A stretch of 64,000 nucleotides of DNA, taken from NCBI GenBank assembly GCA_017937705.1, contig JAGBDC010000030.1, forward strand, positions 38,590 through 102,589, written 5' to 3'. Every line of letters starts with the position of its first letter. Position 1 is the stretch's first letter. The notes under the pieces were generated by a model. It was not told the origin of the DNA and ran no database searches. It saw only the letters and a list, made by a program, of their open reading frames with translations. Shown in pieces: positions 16,048 through 36,727 of this stretch. A program made the position numbers and the translations under genes. This DNA comes from Alphaproteobacteria bacterium (GTDB lineage Bacteria; Pseudomonadota; Alphaproteobacteria; RF32; CAG-239).

Positions 16048-16243
16048 AGTTTATATTATTACATTGTTTGCTGCGACAATAACACCAATAAAAAATCATT
16101 TCAAGTTGATTACAAATTTATCATCATTGAAAATATAAAAAACTTTAACTGGTTAGTATTTGATATTTAGTGTTTGTTTTTTTATGTTTTTGTTATACTA
16201 TGCAGAATAAATATAAATTATAATAATTGCTATGGAGAGAGCT

Positions 16244-17881
16244 ATGAAATTTTCAACTATTTTATCTACATTAATGGTTACAACAGCTTTAACTGCTTGC
16301 GGTGGTGGAGGTGGTGGCGGACATAGTAATATTCCGCATACAACATTGCCGGATGTCTCAAGTTCTAATGCTGAAGTTACTTCAATGTCAAATGTAAGAT
16401 TTTCAAATATCAATAAAGCACGAGAAATAGTTGAAGAAGCAAATAATCAAATATCGGTATCCTTTTTAAATTTTAAAACGCTCGCAACATCATCTTTATC
16501 TGAAGAAGAAGTTTTTGAAGAATTCGGAAAGATGAAAGATTATTTTATTGATGGCAATGTTTTTGATAACAACGGTAATATAAAATTATCATATAATGAT
16601 TTGAAAAAATATTTAATATTAGCGGGTATTGATTTGGAAACAATTAATTTAGATAATATCAGTACCACAGATAGCGATGAAGAAAGACTAAACAAATGGG
16701 TAGATATTAATTTTGTTCAAGTACAAAGAAAAGCTCAAGACAGATATCGCAAATATGGAAATAAACATGATACAGGCCTTGAAGATGCAAAATTAAATGT
16801 AGTTAACATAGGGGCAAAGCAAGACAGTTATGTAAGTTTTGCTCTTGATAAAAATGGAAAAATTGAAGTTTTACATTTTGATGTTGATATAGATTCTGCA
16901 GATGGACGCCAAATGACACTTGATAGAAAGCAAGGAATTGTTTTTTCTCGCACTGGAGATATGCTTGTTTATGGGGTAAAACTGGAAATAGGAAACACAG
17001 GTGCATCAAGAGATATTCGTTTGGAACTTTTTGAAAAACCAACAGATATTAATATATTAAGAAAAATGTTAATTGCCGCTCTTTATGAAGAAAAAGAAGA
17101 TGGTTCATTAGAAAATGATGCAAATATAAATAATGTTGATGATTTTATAGCTTCTGCTATTTCAAAGATAAACTCATTGACCTTAGATTCTTTTAATGGC
17201 AAAACAGAAGATTCTGCTCAAGCAGGAGAAGCATTTAGTGAAGGAGCAACAGCGACAACTAAAGTAAAATATGAAACCTATGCAAAGGGTATAGGTAAAA
17301 AAGGCCTGCAATATTCCGATTTTGGAACAGTACATATAGATAGTATGGAAGGGAACGAAACAGTAAATGAAAAATTTGTTTTTGCCGGTGGATTAGAGGG
17401 AAAAAGAATTAGTAAAAATGACCTACAAGGACAAATGGAATTTGAAGGAAAATCTGTTGCAACTGTGATACATCAAGATGAAACCAATGGTGAGAGAATT
17501 GAAAATACAAAGAGTTTTGATGGAACTGCAAACTTGGTGTTTAATAATGGTTCAGAAACTCTCACAACAAATTTTGATAAATGGTATAATGTAACAGTAA
17601 CTTCAAATACAAATAAAGATAATTATAATATTACATTTAGTAATGGTAATGGTGTGCATAAGAATAATGAACTTTACAAATTTAATGACAAAGACAGTTT
17701 TACTGTAAATGACTTTGTTGGTGATAAAAATGATGGTTCTTATGGTGCTGTAGATATCGGCTATTATGGCGATAATAAAACACCGCAAGAAGCTACAGGT
17801 TTTGTGGCTTATGGTCAAAACTTAAGTGATGGTGTTGATTTACATACTCAAATTGGTTTTGGAACACAAATTGTAAAATAA
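16244..17881 (+). CDS. Surface-lipoprotein candidate with a TbpB/HpuA/fHbp-like C-terminal beta-barrel (Slam substrate type)
   Basis: Lipobox LTAC followed by a Gly7 linker. The C-terminal ~200 aa shows the SLP barrel pattern (YSDFG..., FAGG, GTANLVFNNGSETLTTNF, DIGYYGDNKTPQEATGFV). GGAGAG RBS before ATG 16244. Confidence 0.7.
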   Translation: MKFSTILSTLMVTTALTACGGGGGGGHSNIPHTTLPDVSSSNAEVTSMSNVRFSNINKAREIVEEANNQISVSFLNFKTLATSSLSEEEVFEEFGKMKDYFIDGNVFDNNGNIKLSYNDLKKYLILAGIDLETINLDNISTTDSDEERLNKWVDINFVQVQRKAQDRYRKYGNKHDTGLEDAKLNVVNIGAKQDSYVSFALDKNGKIEVLHFDVDIDSADGRQMTLDRKQGIVFSRTGDMLVYGVKLEIGNTGASRDIRLELFEKPTDINILRKMLIAALYEEKEDGSLENDANINNVDDFIASAISKINSLTLDSFNGKTEDSAQAGEAFSEGATATTKVKYETYAKGIGKKGLQYSDFGTVHIDSMEGNETVNEKFVFAGGLEGKRISKNDLQGQMEFEGKSVATVIHQDETNGERIENTKSFDGTANLVFNNGSETLTTNFDKWYNVTVTSNTNKDNYNITFSNGNGVHKNNELYKFNDKDSFTVNDFVGDKNDGSYGAVDIGYYGDNKTPQEATGFVAYGQNLSDGVDLHTQIGFGTQIVK

Positions 17882-17888
17882 TTACGTT

Positions 17889-19250
17889 ATGACCAAAACC
17901 ATTATCATATTGTTGGTGGCATTTTTATGGTATGGCAATAATATTGCTGAGGCAAATGAAGTGTCACCAACATCTGATTCTACAAGAGTTATTACAATGT
18001 CACATGAAGAAGTACTTTCTTTTGCATCAGATTTAATGAAGCAAGGAAAACTTGCTGATGCAAGAAAAGTTCTTTTATTGAAGCCATATAATAATAAAGA
18101 ACTGGAAATAGAACGATTATATCTTTTAGCTCAAGTTGCAATATTAGAACATAAATATAACGAAGCAATTGATATTTACCATTTTATTTTAGATTATCAG
18201 CCTGATATTCCCAATATCAGATTTAGATTAGCAGAATTATATCTAAAAAAAGAAGACTGGATGCGTGCCGAATATCATTATCGTTTAGCTTTATCTCACA
18301 AAGACACACCGAAAGAAATACAACATAGAATACAATATGCTCTATATTATATTAGAAAAAATAAAAACTGGAATTTGTGGTTTAATGTAGGAATTGCGCC
18401 TGATAATAATGTAAATAACACAACATCAGGCGAACAATGTGTTAGTACATTGTTTGGTGTTATGTGTAATACATTAGATGAACCGGAAAAAGATGTAGGC
18501 TTAAATACAATGGTCGGTGGTGATTATGAATTTAAACTCAATGATAACTGGCGACTAAAGAACGAGTTTATGTTTTATAATTCAAAATATAATGATAAAA
18601 AATATGACGATACATATCTATATTATACATTAGGAGCAAGATACATTTATAATAAAGGAGATATTTTCTTTGGACCAACTTTTTCAAAGAGATATCTTGC
18701 TCATAAATCTTATAATTACTCAACCGGTTTTATGTTTGAAACAAGTTATGATATAACTAAACAATTAAATGCCAATTTGACACTTAGTTATACTCCAACA
18801 TATTATGATGATTATTCTGATATTTTAGATGGAGATGTAAAAAGTGCAAGACTACGTCTTTTTTATGCTTTAGATTCTTCAAAATATTTCATATTTAAGA
18901 CAGGATATGAATATGAAAAGACTAAAGATAAAACATATACAAATGACAGAATAAACCTTGCTCTCGGTTTTGGTGCAGAATTACCCTATGGTTTTCATAT
19001 ATATGCAGAACCATCTGTTTTATATACCCAATATAAAGGCGAACGTTGGACTGTAGATAATTATGAATTTAAGCAAGTTAAAGAATACGACACAACACAA
19101 AGATATTCCATATCTCTTTCTAATCGTAAAATATCATTTATGGGATTGATTCCGACCTTAACATACTCCTATACCGATAAGAGTTCCAATATTTGGCAAA
19201 GAGAATACGAAAAATCTTTAATAGAATTTACAATACAGAAAAGATTTTAG
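17889..19250 (+). CDS. Surface lipoprotein assembly modifier (Slam; TPR + DUF560 outer-membrane barrel, type XI secretion)
   Basis: Signal peptide, TPR-like repeats (res ~40-150), then a beta-strand-rich region starting NWNLWFNVGIAPDNNVNN and ending with an aromatic C-terminal residue (QKRF). Sits 8 nt after the lipoprotein gene. Confidence 0.7.
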   Translation: MTKTIIILLVAFLWYGNNIAEANEVSPTSDSTRVITMSHEEVLSFASDLMKQGKLADARKVLLLKPYNNKELEIERLYLLAQVAILEHKYNEAIDIYHFILDYQPDIPNIRFRLAELYLKKEDWMRAEYHYRLALSHKDTPKEIQHRIQYALYYIRKNKNWNLWFNVGIAPDNNVNNTTSGEQCVSTLFGVMCNTLDEPEKDVGLNTMVGGDYEFKLNDNWRLKNEFMFYNSKYNDKKYDDTYLYYTLGARYIYNKGDIFFGPTFSKRYLAHKSYNYSTGFMFETSYDITKQLNANLTLSYTPTYYDDYSDILDGDVKSARLRLFYALDSSKYFIFKTGYEYEKTKDKTYTNDRINLALGFGAELPYGFHIYAEPSVLYTQYKGERWTVDNYEFKQVKEYDTTQRYSISLSNRKISFMGLIPTLTYSYTDKSSNIWQREYEKSLIEFTIQKRF

Positions 19251-19270
19251 GCTGAATTGTGTGAGACTTT

Positions 19271-19307
19271 ATAAAAACAGGCGTGTGACACTTTGCGATT
19301 ATTAAAC
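19271..19307 (-). repeat. Degenerate distal copy of the pseudo-tRNA-3' segment (scar)
   Basis: CTTTGCGATTATT matches GTTTGCGATTATC of unit B, and the flanking ATAAAAACAGGCG resembles TATAAAATGGTGCG. Lies directly after the GNAT gene. Confidence 0.35.
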
Positions 19308-19313
19308 TAATTT

Positions 19314-19838
19314 TTATAGTTTCTTTGAAAAATAAAGAGCAACTTCATCATCATTTTGTAAATCTGCGTACGGCTCCAGTACTTTTCCCTTCCACCACAA
19401 TCCTGATCCATCAGGTATGTATCCATGTTTAACATACATTCTTTGTGCCGCTCCATAATCACGATGCAATCCTACACCGATAACTACAGTGTCTGCATAT
19501 TTCCGTGCTATATCTTCTGCAACTTGTATGAGTAAACTTCCAATTCCTTGATTTCTGTATTTTTTTAATACTCCTAAATCAATTAACTCAGGAAATCCTT
19601 GCCCGCCATATAAACCACACATTGTATTGGGATAGATGTTAAAATATCCTGCGACATTGCCTTTGTATTCAGCTACTATGGCAACACACTTTCCATCAGC
19701 AACATCTTGTAGGCGTTGCGTGTATTTTTCTATACTTTGATGTGTCCAACCTTGCAAATGTTCTTCATGTGTAATGATTTCAGGGTCTGATTCAACCATA
19801 TCTCTGATAATAACATCATTTATGTTGTAATAAATCAT
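19314..19838 (-). CDS. GNAT-family N-acetyltransferase
   Basis: Acetyl-CoA binding motif LKKYRNQGIGSLLIQVAEDIARKY; 174 aa. Confidence 0.85.
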   Translation of the reverse strand: MIYYNINDVIIRDMVESDPEIITHEEHLQGWTHQSIEKYTQRLQDVADGKCVAIVAEYKGNVAGYFNIYPNTMCGLYGGQGFPELIDLGVLKKYRNQGIGSLLIQVAEDIARKYADTVVIGVGLHRDYGAAQRMYVKHGYIPDGSGLWWKGKVLEPYADLQNDDEVALYFSKKL

Positions 19839-19922
19839 TGTTCATACTTTCTAGAAATGTTTATTTTCTGTTACTATATAACCAACAAATTATTTTATAA
19901 AGAAAATTAAAATTTTTATCCT

Positions 19923-20061
19923 AAGTCCGAATAATTTGCAGAAATCTGTCGTTTTTAGGAATCAGATTGTTAGATTTTTACAACTCACTCCCACAAAAGT
20001 AAAAAAAGCACCTAAATAGGTGCTTTTAAAAAACTGGTGTGCGATATTGTGCGGGTATTAG
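19923..20061 (-). repeat. Repeat unit A: leader + terminator hairpin + pseudo-tRNA-3' end
   Basis: AAGTCCGAATAATTTGCAGAAATCTGTCGTTTTTAGGAATCA aligns with units B and C. Hairpin GCACCTAAATAGGTGC (20008-20023), then ...CTGGTGTGCGATATTGTGCGGGTATT. Confidence 0.6.
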
Positions 20062-20126
20062 AATAATTTTTATGAAAAATACAAGTAACAGTGATTTAAC
20101 CACAAGCTGTTTTTATTATGTTTGTA

Positions 20127-20888
20127 TTAATTTACAGGCGGAACTTCTTTGAAAATATTTTCATTAGCCATCACAAAAATCTGCCTAATTTGAAAATAAT
20201 CATCAATATTTTTAAAACCTTTTGTTTTAACAATGGCACCAGCTTCTTCGGCAATCAAAACTGCGGCGGAATAATCCCATGGTGATAGCTTGAACTCACA
20301 AAAATAACCTATCCGTCCGCAAGCGAGATTGCAAATTTCCAAAGCAGCCGAGCCGCAGCGCCTAACATCAATTGAAGCCTTAAAACATTTCTTTGCATAT
20401 TCAAAAACATCATCAACTTCAGATAAGTCCATTACGCCCGTTCCGAATGTTACAAGGCTATGAGCCAAATCGTCTTTTGTTGTATATATGGCTTGGCCAT
20501 TTAACGTTGCTCCCTTGCCCTTTTCAGCACAAAATAGCTCATCTAAATAAGGATTATAAACAACACCTAAAACCGGCTTGCCTTCCTTTAATAAAGCAAC
20601 ACAAATCGAGCTGAAGTTACAACCTTTTACAAAATTTGTCGTACCATCAATCGGGTCACACACAAAACAATAACCACTTTTTTCGTAGTTATGCTCACCT
20701 TCTTCACCAAAAAATGAGGCTTCGGGCAAAATTTCTTTTAGTTTTTTTTGTAATATTGTTTGTACCTTTAAATCATACTCCGTTAATAAATTTCTTCTGT
20801 CTTCATTTTTGAGCATTACATGATGTATTTGTGCATTTTTGACAATTATGCCACATTCTTTAACAATTTCCACTATTTTGTTTATCAT
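20127..20888 (-). CDS. Inositol monophosphatase family protein (SuhB/CysQ-like)
   Basis: FVCDPIDGTTNFV and SPWDYSAAVLIAEEAG signature motifs. Confidence 0.9.
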   Translation of the reverse strand: MINKIVEIVKECGIIVKNAQIHHVMLKNEDRRNLLTEYDLKVQTILQKKLKEILPEASFFGEEGEHNYEKSGYCFVCDPIDGTTNFVKGCNFSSICVALLKEGKPVLGVVYNPYLDELFCAEKGKGATLNGQAIYTTKDDLAHSLVTFGTGVMDLSEVDDVFEYAKKCFKASIDVRRCGSAALEICNLACGRIGYFCEFKLSPWDYSAAVLIAEEAGAIVKTKGFKNIDDYFQIRQIFVMANENIFKEVPPVN

Positions 20889-20995
20889 AAGTCACCCCCT
20901 AACTAAAATGTTACGACATACAAATTTATATCTATCAAATAAAAGAGACACAAACAATGTATTTTATTATTTTTTCTACAAGTTACAAATCTTAG

Positions 20996-21135
20996 TAAGG
21001 CTATAATACCTGCCAAATTGCTGTTTTAGGGATTTATAAATCGGACTTTGAGGGAAACAAACCCAAAAAGCAAAAAAAACACCTCAATAGGTGCTTTTTA
21101 TAAAATGGTGCGCAATAGTTTGCGATTATCGGACT
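20996..21135 (-). repeat. Repeat unit B: leader + terminator hairpin + pseudo-tRNA-3' end
   Basis: Contains ATAAATCGGACTTTGAGGGA, an A-run, hairpin CACCTCAATAGGTG (21080-21093, identical to the tRNA-Thr terminator), then TTTATAAAATGGTGC and a degenerate tRNA 3' part ending ATCGGACT. Confidence 0.65.
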
Positions 21136-21188
21136 GAAAATTACGATGAATATAGGCAGCTGGAATACAAATTAGAATTAATCTTCAA

Positions 21189-22940
21189 CTAAAAATTGAA
21201 CTCAAGTTGATTTTTGTTTTTCTGATATTTCGTTGCTTCTTCCTCATCTGCATATCGCCAAATATACCCGCTAGCTTTAGGACGTATACCTTGGCATACT
21301 GCTACAATATTTCCACTGCTAATTTTCATTTTGCGTGATGCATCAGAAATTGAAATAAATGTTTGTACAATTTTATTAGTTTTAGGATCTATCATATGAA
21401 CGGCTTTTCTTTTTATCTGAGTTACTTTTTCTATTCCGCATTTCATACAACCATAACCATATGCTCTGTGTCCGATAGTCGCTTCGTATTCATAACCACA
21501 TTGTGAACATTTCCACCAAACCTTGTGATCAGACATCGGTTTAAACATATATGGTGTTAATTTTTCATTTTTAGTTGGATGCCATTCTTTTGCCAATCCA
21601 GGATAAAGTTCTCCAAAAGATCCTTTTTTATACTCTGTTATATATTCATTTAATATTTTTGCTTTATCTCTTTTTATATCAATATCATATGATGGAAATA
21701 CATTTGTTCTCTTATTATCAAATTTAGAAATTAAAACATTTAATTTGTGCAAAATATACGGAATATATATGTTTAAATTTTCATATTTATATAAATCAGG
21801 AATACAAATACATTCATCAGCATTATCTATAGCTGAATTATTTTTTTCTTTTAATCTTATTAAATAAATATTGTTTTTTTTACATATTTTATATTTCTTT
21901 TGTTCCTTATGAATTTTATTGTTTTTATGCCAAGCTTCACCATCGTATTCTATTGCGATGTTTACTGATGGAATAAAAATATCCAGTTCCATTTTGCCTA
22001 AAAAGTCAGCTTTATAACGACTTATTGTATCAGGATAAATTTTCTTTATATAATAATAAAAAGCCTGTTCAGCAAAGGAAGTTTGTCGTCCGGAGTAGCA
22101 TATAGGACAGCCTGTAGCATTATTCCCTGTTCTGTGATTTACAGTTGCCTGATATTCATGTCCATGAGGACAAAGCCACCAAACTTTTTTCCCGCAACCA
22201 TAAGTGACATCTTCAGGCCCGAGCTGTCCATTTTTAACAGGATGCCATTCCTTTGCTAATTCGGGGTGTGTTGTCGCTAAATCATTTTTGCCTTTAACAA
22301 TAGCTCTATTCATACAACAAGGACATCCTTTATCACTTTTTCTTGTCCTATTGCTTATGACCGCTTGCCATTCATAGCCACATTTTTTACATTTCCACCA
22401 AACTTTTTTAGGACTACTCGCTAATATCTGAGATGGCAATATATTTGTGTTTTTCTGGTAATTCCACTCTTCCAATAATTGTGGATTTGTAATAGCTAAA
22501 TTTTTCTTATTCAAAAAATTCTCTTTTTTACAATGGCTACAACCATTATAATTTTTAATACTTTTTTCAATTTCTTTGCCACAAATATGGCATTTCCACC
22601 ATGCCTTATATCGAGAACCTTTTGTAAACATATCTGGGGTTAATTTGCCATTTTTTATAGGATGCCAATCTTTTGCAATTTCTATATTTATCTGAGTATC
22701 TAATCCTCTTTTAATTTTAGACCAACGACCATGATGACAATTTGGACAACAACGTCCATCTTTTGCTCGATGAGAGATGGTCGTTTCCCAATGATATCCG
22801 CATAGTGAGCATTTCCACCAGACCTTTTTTTGACTGCCGCACGTAATTTCTTTGGGGTTCAGGTCTCGATTAGCTTCCCAATCCCATTCTTTCATCAATT
22901 TTTCTTCATAAATTAAATATTTTTTATTCGTAGCAAGCAT
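21189..22940 (-). CDS. Multi-zinc-ribbon (treble-clef, DUF4379-like x5) protein with an embedded Vsr/DUF559-like endonuclease core and a C-terminal NUMOD1-like DNA-binding module
   Basis: Five repeats of W(H/N)P.KN..L.P......S..K.WWKC..CG.E..... with a C..C pair. MELDIFIPSVNIAIEYDGEAWH nuclease-like core. C-terminal IVQTFISISDASRKMKISSGNIVAVCQG...GYIWRY. Confidence 0.75.
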   Translation of the reverse strand: MLATNKKYLIYEEKLMKEWDWEANRDLNPKEITCGSQKKVWWKCSLCGYHWETTISHRAKDGRCCPNCHHGRWSKIKRGLDTQINIEIAKDWHPIKNGKLTPDMFTKGSRYKAWWKCHICGKEIEKSIKNYNGCSHCKKENFLNKKNLAITNPQLLEEWNYQKNTNILPSQILASSPKKVWWKCKKCGYEWQAVISNRTRKSDKGCPCCMNRAIVKGKNDLATTHPELAKEWHPVKNGQLGPEDVTYGCGKKVWWLCPHGHEYQATVNHRTGNNATGCPICYSGRQTSFAEQAFYYYIKKIYPDTISRYKADFLGKMELDIFIPSVNIAIEYDGEAWHKNNKIHKEQKKYKICKKNNIYLIRLKEKNNSAIDNADECICIPDLYKYENLNIYIPYILHKLNVLISKFDNKRTNVFPSYDIDIKRDKAKILNEYITEYKKGSFGELYPGLAKEWHPTKNEKLTPYMFKPMSDHKVWWKCSQCGYEYEATIGHRAYGYGCMKCGIEKVTQIKRKAVHMIDPKTNKIVQTFISISDASRKMKISSGNIVAVCQGIRPKASGYIWRYADEEEATKYQKNKNQLEFNF

Positions 22941-23069
22941 ATTTTTTATCCTTGCATAAGGATTAACTATTTAGCTAAATTTTGCAACTATTTTATAAAA
23001 ATCTTATAAAATTTATCGGACTGGGATTGGTTTTCTCAAAATGCTTGATTTTATTGCTCTTTGCTTAAA

Positions 23070-23180
23070 AAGTCCGATAATTGATGAAAAACTGCCATTT
23101 TCGGGATTCATAAAATCGGACTTTGTGAGAGTCAATTATATCAACAAAAAAAAACACCTCAATAGGTGCCTTTTATAAAA
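23070..23180 (-). repeat. Repeat unit C: native tRNA-Thr terminator and downstream leader (master copy)
   Basis: AAGTCCGAT (23070) and ATCGGACTT (23115) form an inverted pair. A-run plus CACCTCAATAGGTG (23155-23168) is the rho-independent terminator of the minus-strand tRNA. TTTATAAAATGGTGC junction. Confidence 0.65.
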
Positions 23181-23255
23181 TGGTGCCGCTAGTAAGAATC
23201 GGACTTACGACCCCGTCATTACCAATGACGTGCTCTACCACTGAGCTATAGCGGC
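23181..23255 (-). tRNA. tRNA-Thr (anticodon GGU), CCA encoded
   Basis: The reverse complement GCCGCTATAGCTCAGTGGTAGAGCACGTCATTGGTAATGACGGGGTCGTAAGTCCGATTCTTACTAGCGGCACCA folds into a perfect cloverleaf with anticodon loop TTGGTAA. The T-loop reads TCCGATT (C at position 55). Confidence 0.9.
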
Positions 23256-26509: not shown

Positions 26510-27415
26510 ATGGATATTTATTTGGCAAATCCTCGAGGTTTTTGTGCCGGTGTCAGAAGAGCGATTGACATTGTGCACAAGACTTTGGAGGAATATGGAA
26601 ATCCGATATATGTTCGCCACGAAATTGTTCATAATAAACATGTCGTTGAAGATTTGAAAAATCAGGGAACGATATTTGTTGAAGATTTAATTGAGGTTGA
26701 TAAAAAACGACCATTAATATTTTCTGCTCATGGGGTTTCTGATGATGTTAAAAATCAAGCCGTAGAAATGGGCTTAAACATAATTGATGCAACTTGTCCT
26801 TTAGTTTTATATGTTCATAAGTGTATAAAAAAATTAGAAAATGATAATGCTGAAATTATTATTATCGGGAAAAAGGGACATGCAGAAATTATTGGAACAT
26901 TTGGACAAGTTAAAAATAAGCAACGAGTTCATATTATTGCAAATTTATCAGAAGCTCAAAATTTAAACATTCCTGAAAATATAAAAATAGGTGTAGTTAC
27001 TCAAACAACTCTTTCGATAGACGAAACAAAAGAAATAACAGATTTTTTAAAACAAAAATATTCGCAAATAATTTTATATAATAATATTTGCTTTGCTACG
27101 ACTAATAGACAATATGCCGTAAGAAAATTGGCGGAAAAAACGGAAAATATTATAGTGATAGGTTCCAAAAATTCTTCAAATTCAAATAAATTAAAAGAAG
27201 TAGCGATATGCTGTGGTGTAAAAAATGTACTATTTATTGATGATGTTTCGGAAATAAATTGGGAAATAGCAGATACTTTTAACAGTTTAGGTATAACGGC
27301 CGGGGCATCTGCACCTGAATATCTTGTAGAAGAATTGCTTAAAGAATTTAAACAACGTTATGATAATATTAATATTCACAATGTTATAGTAGCGGAAGAA
27401 AACTTTGATTTTTAG
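26510..27415 (+). CDS. ispH: 4-hydroxy-3-methylbut-2-enyl diphosphate reductase
   Basis: NPRGFCAGVRRAI, DATCPLV and ICFATTNRQ cluster-binding Cys motifs. Confidence 0.95.
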   Translation: MDIYLANPRGFCAGVRRAIDIVHKTLEEYGNPIYVRHEIVHNKHVVEDLKNQGTIFVEDLIEVDKKRPLIFSAHGVSDDVKNQAVEMGLNIIDATCPLVLYVHKCIKKLENDNAEIIIIGKKGHAEIIGTFGQVKNKQRVHIIANLSEAQNLNIPENIKIGVVTQTTLSIDETKEITDFLKQKYSQIILYNNICFATTNRQYAVRKLAEKTENIIVIGSKNSSNSNKLKEVAICCGVKNVLFIDDVSEINWEIADTFNSLGITAGASAPEYLVEELLKEFKQRYDNINIHNVIVAEENFDF

Positions 27416-27428
27416 TCGGGAGAAAACA

Positions 27429-28496
27429 ATGTCACGAGCAGAAGATATTTTTCAAAAATTGGTTTATTTCGGCGAAGAAGCTATTGATGAGTTTATACTA
27501 ACTTCACAAAGCGAAGAGCTTTTTCTTGACTTCAAACAAGCAGATTCTTTAGGCAAAAACGGAAATTCTTTACATAAAGACGACAGACGTAATTTGGCAA
27601 AATGTATCTCCGGTTTCGGAAATTCGGAAGGCGGTGTTGTTGTTTGGGGAGTAGAGTGTTCCCGCAATATTGAAATTGGAGATGTAGCACGAGCAAAAGT
27701 TAAAGTTCAAAATGTTCATCGTTTTCTGAGTTGGTTGGAAAATGCTATTTCCGGATGTACAATTCCAAGTCATAATAAAGTGAGAAATCACATAATTAGC
27801 GTTGATGAAAATGGCGATGGTTTTGTTGCGACATATATTCCCAAAAGCGAACAATCCCCGCTGATGACAACAGTTGGCAATACTTTTTATATTCGTTCCG
27901 GTTCAAATAATGTTCCTGCTCCATATTCTGTTTTAGCCGGAATGTTCGGTCGTCGTCCGCAAGCAGAAATAGATTTGATGATTACAGACAAGCATCTGGA
28001 AATTTCAGATAACAGTGAAGCTGATATTTTGTATCCGGCCAGTATTGACTGTCCTCCGGACAAATATATGAAAATAGGTTTTACCATCAGAGGACATAAT
28101 GAAAGCAATGTTATTGCCAGAGAGCTTTATTTATCTTGTACTACGACCTCAGATGGTGGAGATTACAATAAAGTAAGATTTTTAAATTATAATCAAATGG
28201 ATACAATAGCCGGAATTGAGGGGCAATTAAATATCATTACTCGTCCGGAGTTGCGAGTTCCTCCTCGTAGTACTGTAAAATTTGTTAATGTAGAAATTAT
28301 TTTTAGCCCATATATAGAAGAAGATTTTCTACTTGATGGAGTTATTGGAGCAGACGGAACAGCTCCTCGTAATTTCAGAATTTATATTCCTAAAAATAAA
28401 TTACGCTCTTTTGTAGCAAGAGGAATGCGTGAAGATGCAGATGCCAATATTCTGTTAAATGAATTTTTTGCCGAATATATGGTAGGAGATTTATAG
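27429..28496 (+). CDS. AlbA_2 (Schlafen-like putative DNA-binding) domain protein with an unknown beta-rich C-terminal half
   Basis: SEELFLDFKQ ... LAKCISGFGNSEGGVVVWGV matches the AlbA_2 pattern (E..lEFK ... safaNt.GG.l..GV). GGGAGA RBS before ATG 27429. Ends 1 nt before the rnhA ATG. Confidence 0.65.
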   Translation: MSRAEDIFQKLVYFGEEAIDEFILTSQSEELFLDFKQADSLGKNGNSLHKDDRRNLAKCISGFGNSEGGVVVWGVECSRNIEIGDVARAKVKVQNVHRFLSWLENAISGCTIPSHNKVRNHIISVDENGDGFVATYIPKSEQSPLMTTVGNTFYIRSGSNNVPAPYSVLAGMFGRRPQAEIDLMITDKHLEISDNSEADILYPASIDCPPDKYMKIGFTIRGHNESNVIARELYLSCTTTSDGGDYNKVRFLNYNQMDTIAGIEGQLNIITRPELRVPPRSTVKFVNVEIIFSPYIEEDFLLDGVIGADGTAPRNFRIYIPKNKLRSFVARGMREDADANILLNEFFAEYMVGDL

Positions 28497-35955: not shown

Positions 35956-36453
35956 TTATTTTTCATTAAAAACATAACACACTTCCGCATACTCTTGACC
36001 TTGTATAACTAGGTTACGGTTAAATTGCTTAGCAATTATACCCCCGTTTTTTTCGTAAAAATGTGCCGCTTTAAAATTCTTTTCAAGAACATAAAGATAA
36101 AATTCTTCATTATGTATAGTTTGTCTATACGTTTTTATAAGCATTGAACCAACACCTTTTCTTTGTGCCGCAGGTTTAACATATAATGCACTGATTTCAT
36201 TTTTAATGCCGTAATTATCACGAGCTGAACCCGCAGATAAATAACCCATAATTTCTCCGTCGTTCTCACAAATCAAAACAATACGTTCTGAGCTTTCAAT
36301 AATTCTAATCCACGTTGATATTCTCTTATTATCGACCTTCCGCTCATTGAGATAAGTAGCATCAATTATTCCTTTGTATGCATTTTGCCATGTTTCAACG
36401 TTTATTTGAGCTATAACTTCGGCATCTTCAATCTCAGCCTTGCGGACTTTCAT
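35956..36453 (-). CDS. GNAT-family N-acetyltransferase
   Basis: VKPAAQRKGVGSMLIKTY acetyl-CoA motif; 165 aa. Confidence 0.85.
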   Translation of the reverse strand: MKVRKAEIEDAEVIAQINVETWQNAYKGIIDATYLNERKVDNKRISTWIRIIESSERIVLICENDGEIMGYLSAGSARDNYGIKNEISALYVKPAAQRKGVGSMLIKTYRQTIHNEEFYLYVLEKNFKAAHFYEKNGGIIAKQFNRNLVIQGQEYAEVCYVFNEK

Positions 36454-36651: not shown

Positions 36652-36727
36652 TGGTGATCCCAGCGAGACTCGAACTCGCGTTACCGCCGTGAGAGGGCGA
36701 TGTCCTAGGCCACTAGACGATGGGACC
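36652..36727 (-). tRNA. tRNA-Glu (anticodon CUC), CCA encoded
   Basis: The reverse complement GGTCCCATCGTCTAGTGGCCTAGGACATCGCCCTCTCACGGCGGTAACGCGAGTTCGAGTCTCGCTGGGATCACCA closely parallels bacterial tRNA-Glu. Anticodon loop CTCTCAC, canonical T-loop TTCGAGT. Confidence 0.92.

Follow-up and report, generated by a model that had tools for sequence, protein, structure and literature searches.

A recombinase-less array of single-gene cassettes at a tRNA-Thr(GGT) gene in an alphaproteobacterium and its probable origin at the attachment site of a large serine recombinase family

We analysed a stretch of 64,000 nucleotides (nt) from the genome assembly of an alphaproteobacterium (the whole stretch is called the window here), in which a tRNA-Thr(GGT) gene on the minus strand at 23181-23255 (ARAGORN; Rfam RF00005, 70.8 bits) is followed by three single-gene cassettes separated by direct repeats. 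Each of the three cassettes consists of a left-end module, one gene and a right-hand arm (the P arm), and none carries a large serine recombinase (LSR). We consider it probable that these cassettes form an accretion array, itself without an LSR, at the tRNA-Thr(GGT) attachment site of an LSR family, and that its origin was LSR-linked and site-specific. The 3' end of the tRNA (from AGTCCGAT in the T-loop to GCACCA), which heads arrays in relatives too, is the putative attB-left half of that attachment site. Related loci or stretches that were compared with the window are given L-numbers (L003, L016 and so on), and database protein matches are given P-numbers (P0001 and so on).

On the minus strand, the repeat unit occurs three times (units A, B and C). 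It opens with ~30 nt whose last bases are CACCA; an A/T spacer, the hairpin GCACCTATTGAGGTG and a T-run follow, and a leader completes the unit. The copies form a 74-nt direct-repeat family (23113-23186, 21038-21111 and 19967-20040), in which the other two members are 82% and 65% identical to the middle copy, and a 51-nt family joins 21094-21144 and 20023-20073 to a scar at 19267-19317. Units A and B have ~38 identical bases in common, and CACCATTTTATAAAA occurs exactly both at the tRNA end and at unit B. The hairpin was found three times in the 64 kb (two exact copies and one with one mismatch) against 0.05 expected, a count reached in none of 100 shuffles, and all three hairpins score as intrinsic terminators in the orientation of the tRNA.

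The core of the first junction (core A, GCACCATT, 23179-23186, minus strand) is common to every junction type described below and is the inferred crossover region. It is followed by the left-end module of cassette 1 (22941-23178, minus strand), which contains the spacer TTATAAAAG, a terminator hairpin at 23149-23174, a T-run and a leader, and which has homologous modules in other arrays. The cargo of cassette 1 (21189-22940, minus strand) encodes a protein of 583 amino acids (aa) that has five DUF4379 repeats (treble-clef zinc fingers), a NUMOD1 DNA-binding motif at its C terminus and a weak match of the nuclease-related, DUF2726-like type (Pfam); DUF4379 homologues with 44-48% identity are cargo of other arrays (L150, L095 and L101). 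The right end of this cassette, P arm B (21106-21192, plus strand), has an intact 28-codon frame (WCAIVCDYRTENYDEYRQLEYKLELIFN*) homologous to the C-terminal tail of a serine integrase, and holds the 30-nt motif AGTCCGATAATCGCAAACTATTGCGCACCA (21106-21135, minus strand). Core B and the left-end module of cassette 2 occupy 20889-21105 (minus strand), with TT at 21104-21105 completing GCACCATT and a terminator at 21074-21099, and the cargo (20127-20888, minus strand) is an inositol-monophosphatase-family protein (IMPase) of 253 aa (Pfam PF00459, E=1.2e-49). Cassette 2 ends in the decayed P arm C (20035-20090, plus strand), which reads WCAILCGY*NNFYEKYK*Q* and whose first stop is also present in L003, the closest relative. 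Cassette 3 has a left-end module at 19839-20034 (minus strand; terminator at 20004-20027) and encodes a GNAT acetyltransferase of 174 aa (19314-19838, minus strand; Pfam PF00583) that is absent from L003. The array finishes in scar D (19267-19308, minus strand), made up of a strongly decayed P arm (19280-19308) and an A/T spacer (19267-19279) with no hairpin; around TGCGATTAT, 14 of 18 bases match the P motif by inspection. The original prediction for this locus had described three direct copies and a fourth, degenerate scar downstream of tRNA-Thr, a hairpin that is identical in two copies and one base off in the third, a junction common to the tRNA copy and unit B, and exactly one gene per interval in the tRNA orientation, all of which agrees with these results. 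A fifth scar, upstream of a 549-aa hypothetical protein gene (hyp549) beyond the array (CTGCATAGTATAAC, ~16192-16205), was considered and is too weak to claim.

The array is flanked on one side by genes for Slam, hyp549 and a membrane spermine-synthase-like protein (SpmSyn), and on the other by genes for a small lipoprotein, MurA, an M16 peptidase and IspH. Species-representative genomes were scanned with MurA, which gave 80 syntenic loci, the closest of them mostly from uncultured Alphaproteobacteria of human, ruminant and other animal guts; identical MurA proteins in the same arrangement were also found on five metagenome contigs. A tRNA-Thr(GGT) gene lies near MurA in many of the 80 loci, and a profile of units A-C found dozens of copies in them, lined up in one orientation from tRNA-Thr onward (L042, L019 and L006 have four copies each, L046 and L023 three). 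The copies away from the tRNA share a strongly conserved 30-nt motif, AGTCCGATAAYYGCAYAG......GCACCA. An exact-pattern scan with this motif returned 114 metagenome stretches, in which the tRNA in reach was almost always tRNA-Thr(GGT), upstream and co-oriented, and at ~190 related loci the unit was found arrayed behind a tRNA-Thr(GGT) gene. A generic repeat of the dispersed terminator or REP-like (repetitive extragenic palindromic) type, present here by chance and named in the original prediction as an outcome that would overturn it, shares with the unit the shape of a hairpin with a T-run and nothing more; this explanation is refuted within the available data, as all three hairpin copies in the 64 kb sit at the array, far above the chance expectation, and in 2.2 Mb of related DNA the P motif goes together with arrays at tRNA-Thr.

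In related gut Alphaproteobacteria, an LSR with Resolvase, Recombinase and Zn_ribbon_recom domains (Pfam) is encoded directly downstream of tRNA-Thr. The LSR gene is convergent on the tRNA, with overlapping 3' ends. Full-length copies are present in L005, L016 (515 aa), L075 and L084, and truncated or fragmentary ones in L087 (an open reading frame (ORF) of 382 aa), L166, L090, L032, L152, L186, L097, L171, L118 and L095. Of these, the copies of L087 and at least six further loci adjoin the tRNA, and that of L090 adjoins P arms. All three domains were found in relatives (L016, L087 and P0001-P0038), and not in the window. LSR elements share a small module consisting of a REP_ORF2-G2P-like protein, four small ORFs and the LSR. 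Comparison of the LSR with PDB sequences (phmmer, E<=1e-3) gave no match to solved LSR structures and only spurious RecA hits. In seven database proteins (P0045, P0049, P0055, P0064, P0068, P0069 and P0081), a C-terminal LSR fragment is fused to methylase, restriction-enzyme or Fic domains; these are probably deletion derivatives that joined an integrase remnant to neighbouring cargo, and point to frequent decay of LSR elements in arrays.

The LSR ends in ...KWC, which is the antisense of GCACCATTT, and its reading frame crosses the core GCACCATT. Beside the tRNA, the frame stops as KWCR* or reads through the antisense strand of the tRNA, and beside a P arm it continues as KWCAILC... for ~30 aa. 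Correspondingly, LSR homologues in a large protein database fall into length classes of 514/515 aa (KWCR*), 526/544 aa (tRNA read-through) and 540-548 aa (tailed; P0008, P0019 and P0031), and continuation of the LSR frame in phase into the P arm was seen in L090 (KWCAILCDYRTKNYDDFKQLIRKIELFE...), P0008, P0019 and P0031. The P arm itself is a conserved stretch of ~90 nt left of the core that reads in antisense as a ~30-residue peptide, WCAILCxYRTxxYEDFKxLxRKIELFE (consensus peptide WCAILCSYRTNNYEDFKELSRKIELFE). Among 121 distinct P arms, this antisense frame is open over a median of 32 codons, compared with 18 and 9 in the other two frames, and 107 of 119 distinct copies are open across 27 codons. 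Variability at the three codon positions is 1.05, 0.78 and 1.40 bits (entropy, outside the 30-nt motif), a pattern typical of coding sequence. Read in this way, the P arm is the predicted C-terminal exon of the integrase in attP configuration. Since the LSR frame spans the core, integration would clip the integrase, and every element would leave a tail exon at its distal end; the integrase gene is thus predicted to span its own attP, and integration to exchange a ~30-residue tail for a single residue. The original prediction had taken the copies away from the tRNA for decayed tRNA 3' ends, which they are not: the P arms in the window have only AGTCCGAT and GCACCA in common with the tRNA, and the arm is a separately conserved coding sequence.

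A paralogous LSR (47% identity; L202:8001-9659) overlaps the 3' end of tRNA-Leu(CAA) by 54 nt and is likewise convergent on it, and a tail-bearing relative lies in L204 (5980-8743). tRNA targeting by a gene that spans attP therefore appears to be a property of the clade. Just upstream of the L204 gene lies that of a 200-aa small serine recombinase (Resolvase and HTH_7). In the tRNA-Thr clade, a single LSR is found at the integration site, and a small serine recombinase also occurs within the L190 array; given those of L204 and L190, this family may include a CcrA/CcrB-like recombinase pair.

To describe how these sequences are joined, 233 distinct junctions were sorted by left arm and right arm. 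The left arm is the tRNA 3' end (T), the conserved P-arm motif (P) or a true tRNA 3' remnant of 17-19 nt (R), and the right arm is a terminator and leader of the type seen in the window (C), the 3' end of the recombinase gene (L) or the native terminator with, behind it, ~200 nt of GC-rich sequence that we call the X block (N). Every combination of left and right arms occurs (P-C 55, T-C 27, R-C 24, P-L 16, T-L 9, T-N 11, and P-N at least 12 with many more in an unclassified bin), and the sole sequence common to all is the 8-bp GCACCATT. The 147 intervals between successive junctions are cassettes that fall into 80 sequence clusters; their median length is 1.4 kb, and most have one or two ORFs. 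Relatives have up to four junctions per ~10 kb flank per locus, and LSR elements are mixed with LSR-less cassettes (L087, for example). The cargo is typical of flexible islands and includes C5, Dam and EcoRI-type methylases with restriction enzymes, HNH and Vsr nucleases, an SF1 helicase-nuclease, Fic/RhuM and Bro-N/KilA-N proteins, an APH-family phosphotransferase, acetyltransferases, an ankyrin protein, glycosyltransferases and an autotransporter, and DUF4379 proteins akin to that of the window recur as cargo. Cassettes are present in some loci and absent from others, and change position between them, and the breaks fall at the core. A given cassette is seen variously behind the tRNA, behind different cassettes or an X block, or before the native end. 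When copies of one cassette were aligned, identity began right after GCACCA whatever the left arm, which favours exchange at a specific site over homologous crossing-over at varying points.

The repeats could also be viewed as a signal for transcript processing or termination, made up of a tRNA-like element and a terminator and acting in RNA without any mobility of the DNA. The hairpins are good intrinsic terminators and the three genes of the window are all co-oriented with the tRNA, as such a signal would have it; across the 80 distinct cassettes, however, 72 cargoes are co-oriented and 73 opposite, what is conserved in the arm is a protein sequence read from the other strand, and cassettes are present in one genome, missing from another or found in a different place. 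When the window and eight related loci were scanned with Rfam, tRNAs were the only hits, and the unit has neither an Rfam family nor a consistent fold. This explanation is largely refuted, and we give it almost no weight.

The X block is the commonest 'cassette' of the relatives; it is gene-less, has several hairpins, often follows the tRNA-Thr terminator or a P arm (L021:251-461, L023:1271-1492, L084:594-801, L091:3210-3568 and ~20 more; none in the window), is found in many contexts and is duplicated in tandem in L091. The tRNA T-arm, in inverted form (ATCGGACTTGCGGGGG), opens the block and a true 17-19-nt tRNA 3' remnant closes it; such true remnants were found in relatives only with X blocks. 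A relic attB, a small RNA and a mini-element are candidates for its nature; it has no Rfam match, and RNAalifold found no consensus structure on what was a poor alignment. A similar arrangement was observed at tRNA-Phe(GAA) in L051:8597-8935 and L068:18285-18330, where the tRNA is followed by a terminator, a ~200-nt block and a pseudo 3' end (CAAGACCGATCCTWATCGAAGACCACCA) that has this same terminator again, so that a different tRNA seems to have a comparable repeat system.

Remnants of 17-19 nt, seen in relatives next to X blocks, are typical of T-loop crossover by tyrosine integrases, enzymes that usually act at the 3' ends of tRNA genes (PMC4383910), and the array could be a classical tRNA island, tycheposon-like or P4-like, whose repeats are attL/attR scars made by a tyrosine integrase encoded elsewhere. 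We consider this very unlikely. A signature regular expression gave no credible tyrosine recombinase among ~2400 ORFs from ~190 loci (only false positives), Pfam found no tyrosine integrase among ~60 ORFs of arrays and flanks, and the repeats of the window correspond to the LSR tail arm, not to tRNA fragments. ORFs of 330-450 aa beside the tRNA, inspected as possible tyrosine integrases, proved to encode an HNH nuclease, an AAA ATPase, hydrolases, a tRNA synthetase of the TrpRS/TyrRS family, methylases and other proteins. The resemblance to tycheposons drawn in the original prediction therefore does not extend to the enzyme, which in relatives is a large serine recombinase and not a tyrosine recombinase.

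We then compared the two left arms with what is known of serine-integrase sites. LSR attachment sites are short and have only a central dinucleotide in common, and the motif bound by the zinc-ribbon domain lies 5 bp nearer the centre in attB than in attP (LI integrase; PMC3783163). Here, the distance from the end of AGTCCGAT to the CCA end is 17 nt in the tRNA and 22 nt in the P arm, a difference of 5 nt, and no matching inverted motif was found in the right arms. By analogy, AGTCCGAT may be the zinc-ribbon-domain motif, and the tRNA and the P arm may be an attB-left/attP-left pair. The dyad of an LSR site would predict that the right arms carry AGTCCGAT in inverted form at a symmetric distance; no convincing copy was found, the inverted ones lying at +53 (native), ~+103 (cassette leader) and ~+120 (inside the LSR gene).

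The 8-mer is widely distributed around these junctions. In the window, AGTCCGAT or its inverted form ATCGGACT lies at 21040, 21128, 23015, 23071, 23115 and 23198. Leader A carries AGTCCGAT at 23115-23122, ATCGGACT at 23071-23078 and a third copy, AGTCCGAT, at 23015-23022, leader B the direct copy at 21040-21047, and leader C degenerate copies; the inverted pair that the original prediction assigned to the leader is accordingly intact in leader A alone. In the 2.17 Mb of collected loci there are 649 occurrences of AGTCCGAT/ATCGGACT against ~40 estimated by chance, an enrichment that is overstated as the loci were selected by motif. Sites occur in the tRNA T-loop, in the P arm, in both orientations in the cassette leaders, within the LSR gene and directly ahead of its ribosome-binding site, a distribution that suggests a protein-binding site, so that AGTCCGAT is a candidate binding site with a regulatory or architectural role. 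Elsewhere in the window, the T-loop sequence of tRNA-Glu(CTC) (36652-36727) recurs ~55 nt downstream, after a T-run (CGAGTTCGAAT, cf. CGAGTTCGAGT in the tRNA), which mirrors the copy of AGTCCGAT ~58 nt downstream of tRNA-Thr; the next gene encodes a GNAT (35956-36453), and no second copy of the tRNA-Glu(CTC) 3' end was found within the window.

The closest relative, L003, is a metagenome-assembled genome from roe deer colon whose MurA is 100% identical to that of the window. Its gene order is SpmSyn-IMPase-tRNA-Thr, without the DUF4379 cassette and without the block of GNAT, Slam and hyp549. The IMPase is 99% identical and tRNA-proximal in L003, where the left-end module of cassette 2 directly follows the tRNA. 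Presence and absence of individual cassettes between strains, on which the original prediction had proposed that it be checked, was therefore observed within the species. The tails of the window are intact in arm B, contain stops in arm C and are barely recognisable in scar D, such that decay grows with distance from the tRNA; together with the lack in L003 of the proximal DUF4379 cassette, whose arm is intact, this fits entry at the tRNA-proximal end. On the distal side (window 16143-19990, L003:8100-8140), the window is longer than L003 by 3.9 kb, which comprise leader C, the GNAT gene, scar D, the gene for the Slam-family outer-membrane protein and the 549-aa lipoprotein-like ORF. This 3.9-kb difference was probably a separate deletion or insertion, and may be an ordinary deletion.

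Several observations weigh against an LSR-linked, site-specific origin of the array. No recombinase gene was found in the 64-kb window, as the original prediction had also noted for integrases, and no LSR or LSR fragment was found in the window or in the five near-identical contigs; any activity at this locus would need an enzyme supplied in trans. The breakpoints of the 3.9-kb difference lie in T-runs (GGTGCTTTTTTTA... / ...AAAGTTTTTTATA), not at the GCACCATT core. Behind the core, L003 has the 11-nt spacer TTCCAAAAAAA where the window has TTTTATAAAA(G/A) at both units A and B, and conversion between window and L003 by one crossover, whether placed at CACCA or in the hairpin, was rejected since neither phase yields the observed spacers. 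Among relatives, 10-20 nt on either side of the core vary between copies of one cassette, a mosaicism at the att site itself that does not fit the model: from AGTCCGAT to GCACCA (~16 nt) and directly behind the core (~10 nt), the sequence toggles among a few versions (for example ...CAGTATCGC vs ...CAGCAGGCT) in otherwise identical cassettes (for example at L042:6541, L148:8471, L157:6026 and L180:1938). The left-end modules of the cassettes show a weak likeness to the LSR-side attP-right half-site, with none obvious beyond ~12 nt, and are putative recombination substrates of unproven competence. As to excised forms, the 30-nt motif had 0 matches in a viral contig collection, and no circular assembly of an LSR element was found, L197-L199 being without terminal overlap and looking like tandem-array junctions.

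Some of these features are what would be expected of a homologous-recombination hotspot, in which the terminator, leader and P-arm modules are patches of homology, LSR-less cassettes are added, deleted and shuffled by RecA-mediated unequal crossing-over and by allelic replacement via the conserved flanks (tRNA and MurA to one side, core genes to the other), and the LSR moves its own elements only. The ~38 bases shared by units A and B are enough for RecA-mediated events, the T-run breakpoints and the recombinase-free window agree with such a process, and no single site-specific event explains the junction spacers of window and L003. On the other hand, the same cassette in unrelated contexts is identical exactly from GCACCA and not from variable points in the modules, and three unrelated left arms (tRNA, P arm and true 3' remnant) are joined to the same right arms. 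Moreover, the P arms of LSR-less cassettes are still under protein-coding constraint, which is hard to explain if they are mere homology patches. On balance we regard homologous recombination as an unlikely explanation of the array.

We therefore return to the LSR-linked origin, for which the following course of events is proposed. In uncultured Alphaproteobacteria of gut and rumen, an LSR family would insert its elements at the tRNA-Thr(GGT) 3' end. To the left of the core stands either the tRNA 3' end (the presumed attB-left equivalent) or the ~90-nt P arm (the presumed attP-left equivalent); on the right, the core is followed by a cassette left-end module with its terminator and leader, by the native terminator or by the LSR gene, which is met at its 3' end. 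The LSR would catalyse the insertion and exchange events, and new arrivals would enter at the tRNA-proximal end. Cassettes may arrive alone, with the LSR acting in trans, or as passengers left behind when an LSR element excises; the individual mobility of LSR-less cassettes is unproven. Serial site-specific insertion at a tRNA 3' end, as put forward in the original prediction, fits a unit that is specific to this locus, the ~190 loci with tRNA-Thr(GGT) arrays, the L003 polymorphism and the shuffled cassettes. A further and more tentative proposal, possible but in our judgement short of probable, is that the system works as a self-clipping switch. The integrase gene would be complete only in the excised attP form, every cassette of the tRNA-Thr array would hold a spare C-terminal exon, and any P arm could serve as a right end that restores the full-length enzyme; the tail would control directionality, and the tRNA would be an integron-like platform for capture and release at which a visiting integrase element picks up, moves and deposits single-gene cassettes, those of the window included.

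Staphylococcal SCCmec and composite SCC elements are inserted by CcrAB large serine recombinases at the 3' end of rlmH/orfX. They share with the arrays described here an LSR acting at the 3' end of a conserved single-copy gene, tandem elements parted by direct repeats of the integration site, recombinase-less members (pseudo-SCC, which may there depend on Ccr in trans) and accessory or defence cargo. They differ in that the target here is a tRNA, the LSR ORF crosses attP and would be clipped on integration, and the cassettes are far smaller (median 1.4 kb). SCCmec elements are summarised in PMC3146451. The same paper describes ssrA islands of Dehalococcoides (McMurdie et al. 2011), in which DsiB, a CcrB-like serine recombinase, is encoded by attL at the 3' end of the tmRNA gene. 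As presented in the sections of that paper on the islands, they stand in tandem between direct repeats. Each repeat has a conserved motif upstream of it that is unlike the target gene, and islands that lack an integration module are held there to be cis-mobilizable, cf. the LSR-less cassettes here. According to the same sections, the ssrA islands differ from the present arrays in their tmRNA target, 20-bp repeat, crossover in the T-loop, size of tens of kb and 6-gene integration module, and no attP-spanning integrase ORF is described in them (PMC3146451). The small and large serine recombinases of L204 recall the CcrA/CcrB and DsiA/DsiB pairs. By analogy, composite SCCmec islands and Dehalococcoides ssrA islands would be the closest systems in their working, and the concept of accretion and of cis-mobilizable elements (CIMEs) would also apply. 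CIMEs (Pavlovic 2004 and Bellanger 2011, reviewed in PMC5704250) likewise have att sites without recombination genes, stand in tandem with autonomous elements and are potentially mobilised in cis; unlike the present cassettes, which are much smaller and have a conserved, dedicated left-end module, they arise by decay of large elements, namely integrative and conjugative elements with tyrosine integrases in Firmicutes (PMC5704250).

Other systems share single features. Tycheposons (Hackl et al., bioRxiv 10.1101/2020.12.28.424599) are tRNA-linked islands in which successive integrations push older elements outward and leave scattered remnants and partial repeats, and some have a small replication module, as LSR elements have their REP_ORF2-G2P-like gene; they are defined, however, by a lineage-specific tyrosine recombinase that faces inward at one end (tRNA-associated in 474 of 501), in contrast to the serine recombinase here, and they lie between a full tRNA and repeats that are partial tRNAs, where our repeats are an integrase tail exon. 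In the archaeal 'suicidal' SSV-type integrases, called exclusive to archaea in a 2021 review (PMC8371274), the recombination site also lies inside the integrase gene, the target is a tRNA and the gene is split to opposite ends of the element. Those enzymes are tyrosine recombinases (PF16795) of archaeal hosts in which the catalytic domain is separated, whereas the present enzyme is a bacterial serine recombinase and a milder case, in which only ~30 C-terminal residues are lost and all recognised domains are kept. Integron cassettes resemble the units here in being ~1 kb, mostly of one or two genes, promoter-poor, stacked at one site and provided with a conserved recombination element at their end. 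The arrays differ from integrons in having no IntI and no attI, in a random orientation of cargo and in a cassette end that is a coding arm without a conserved hairpin and not an imperfect-palindrome attC site; the hairpin of the array is a terminator to the right of the core, not a cassette end of the attC type. Since accretion arrays with recombinase-less members have already been described, the suggestion in the original prediction of an undescribed cassette-accretion mechanism does not hold for the class of mechanism. The variant does have new features: the target is a tRNA, the integrase gene truncates itself and marks each cassette with its tail exon, and the cassettes are of integron size and have a left-end module of their own.

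Serine integrases have been stated not to target tRNA genes (the Islander paper, PMC4383910), and in a limited literature search we found no later report of serine integrases that do. Contrary to that statement, a whole clade of serine integrases appears to target tRNA genes, namely tRNA-Thr and, for the paralogue, tRNA-Leu. The family would also be a bacterial, serine-type counterpart to the self-cut integrases stated to be confined to archaea (PMC8371274), and suggests a simple built-in switch between the excised and integrated states. The arrays show uncultured gut Alphaproteobacteria gathering defence and accessory genes in units of down to one gene. LSRs with short and defined attB and attP sites are tools of genome engineering. 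A family with a conserved natural landing site in a tRNA and a tail-dependent form is of interest for this purpose and directly testable.

Two further genes of defence type lie in the window outside the array. A Schlafen/AlbA_2-domain protein is encoded at 27405-28496, between ispH and rnhA, and the window starts (2-1369) inside a gene for a fused, type I/IIG-like restriction-modification protein of 1269 aa, which in L200 has N6_Mtase, Eco57I and Methylase_S domains.

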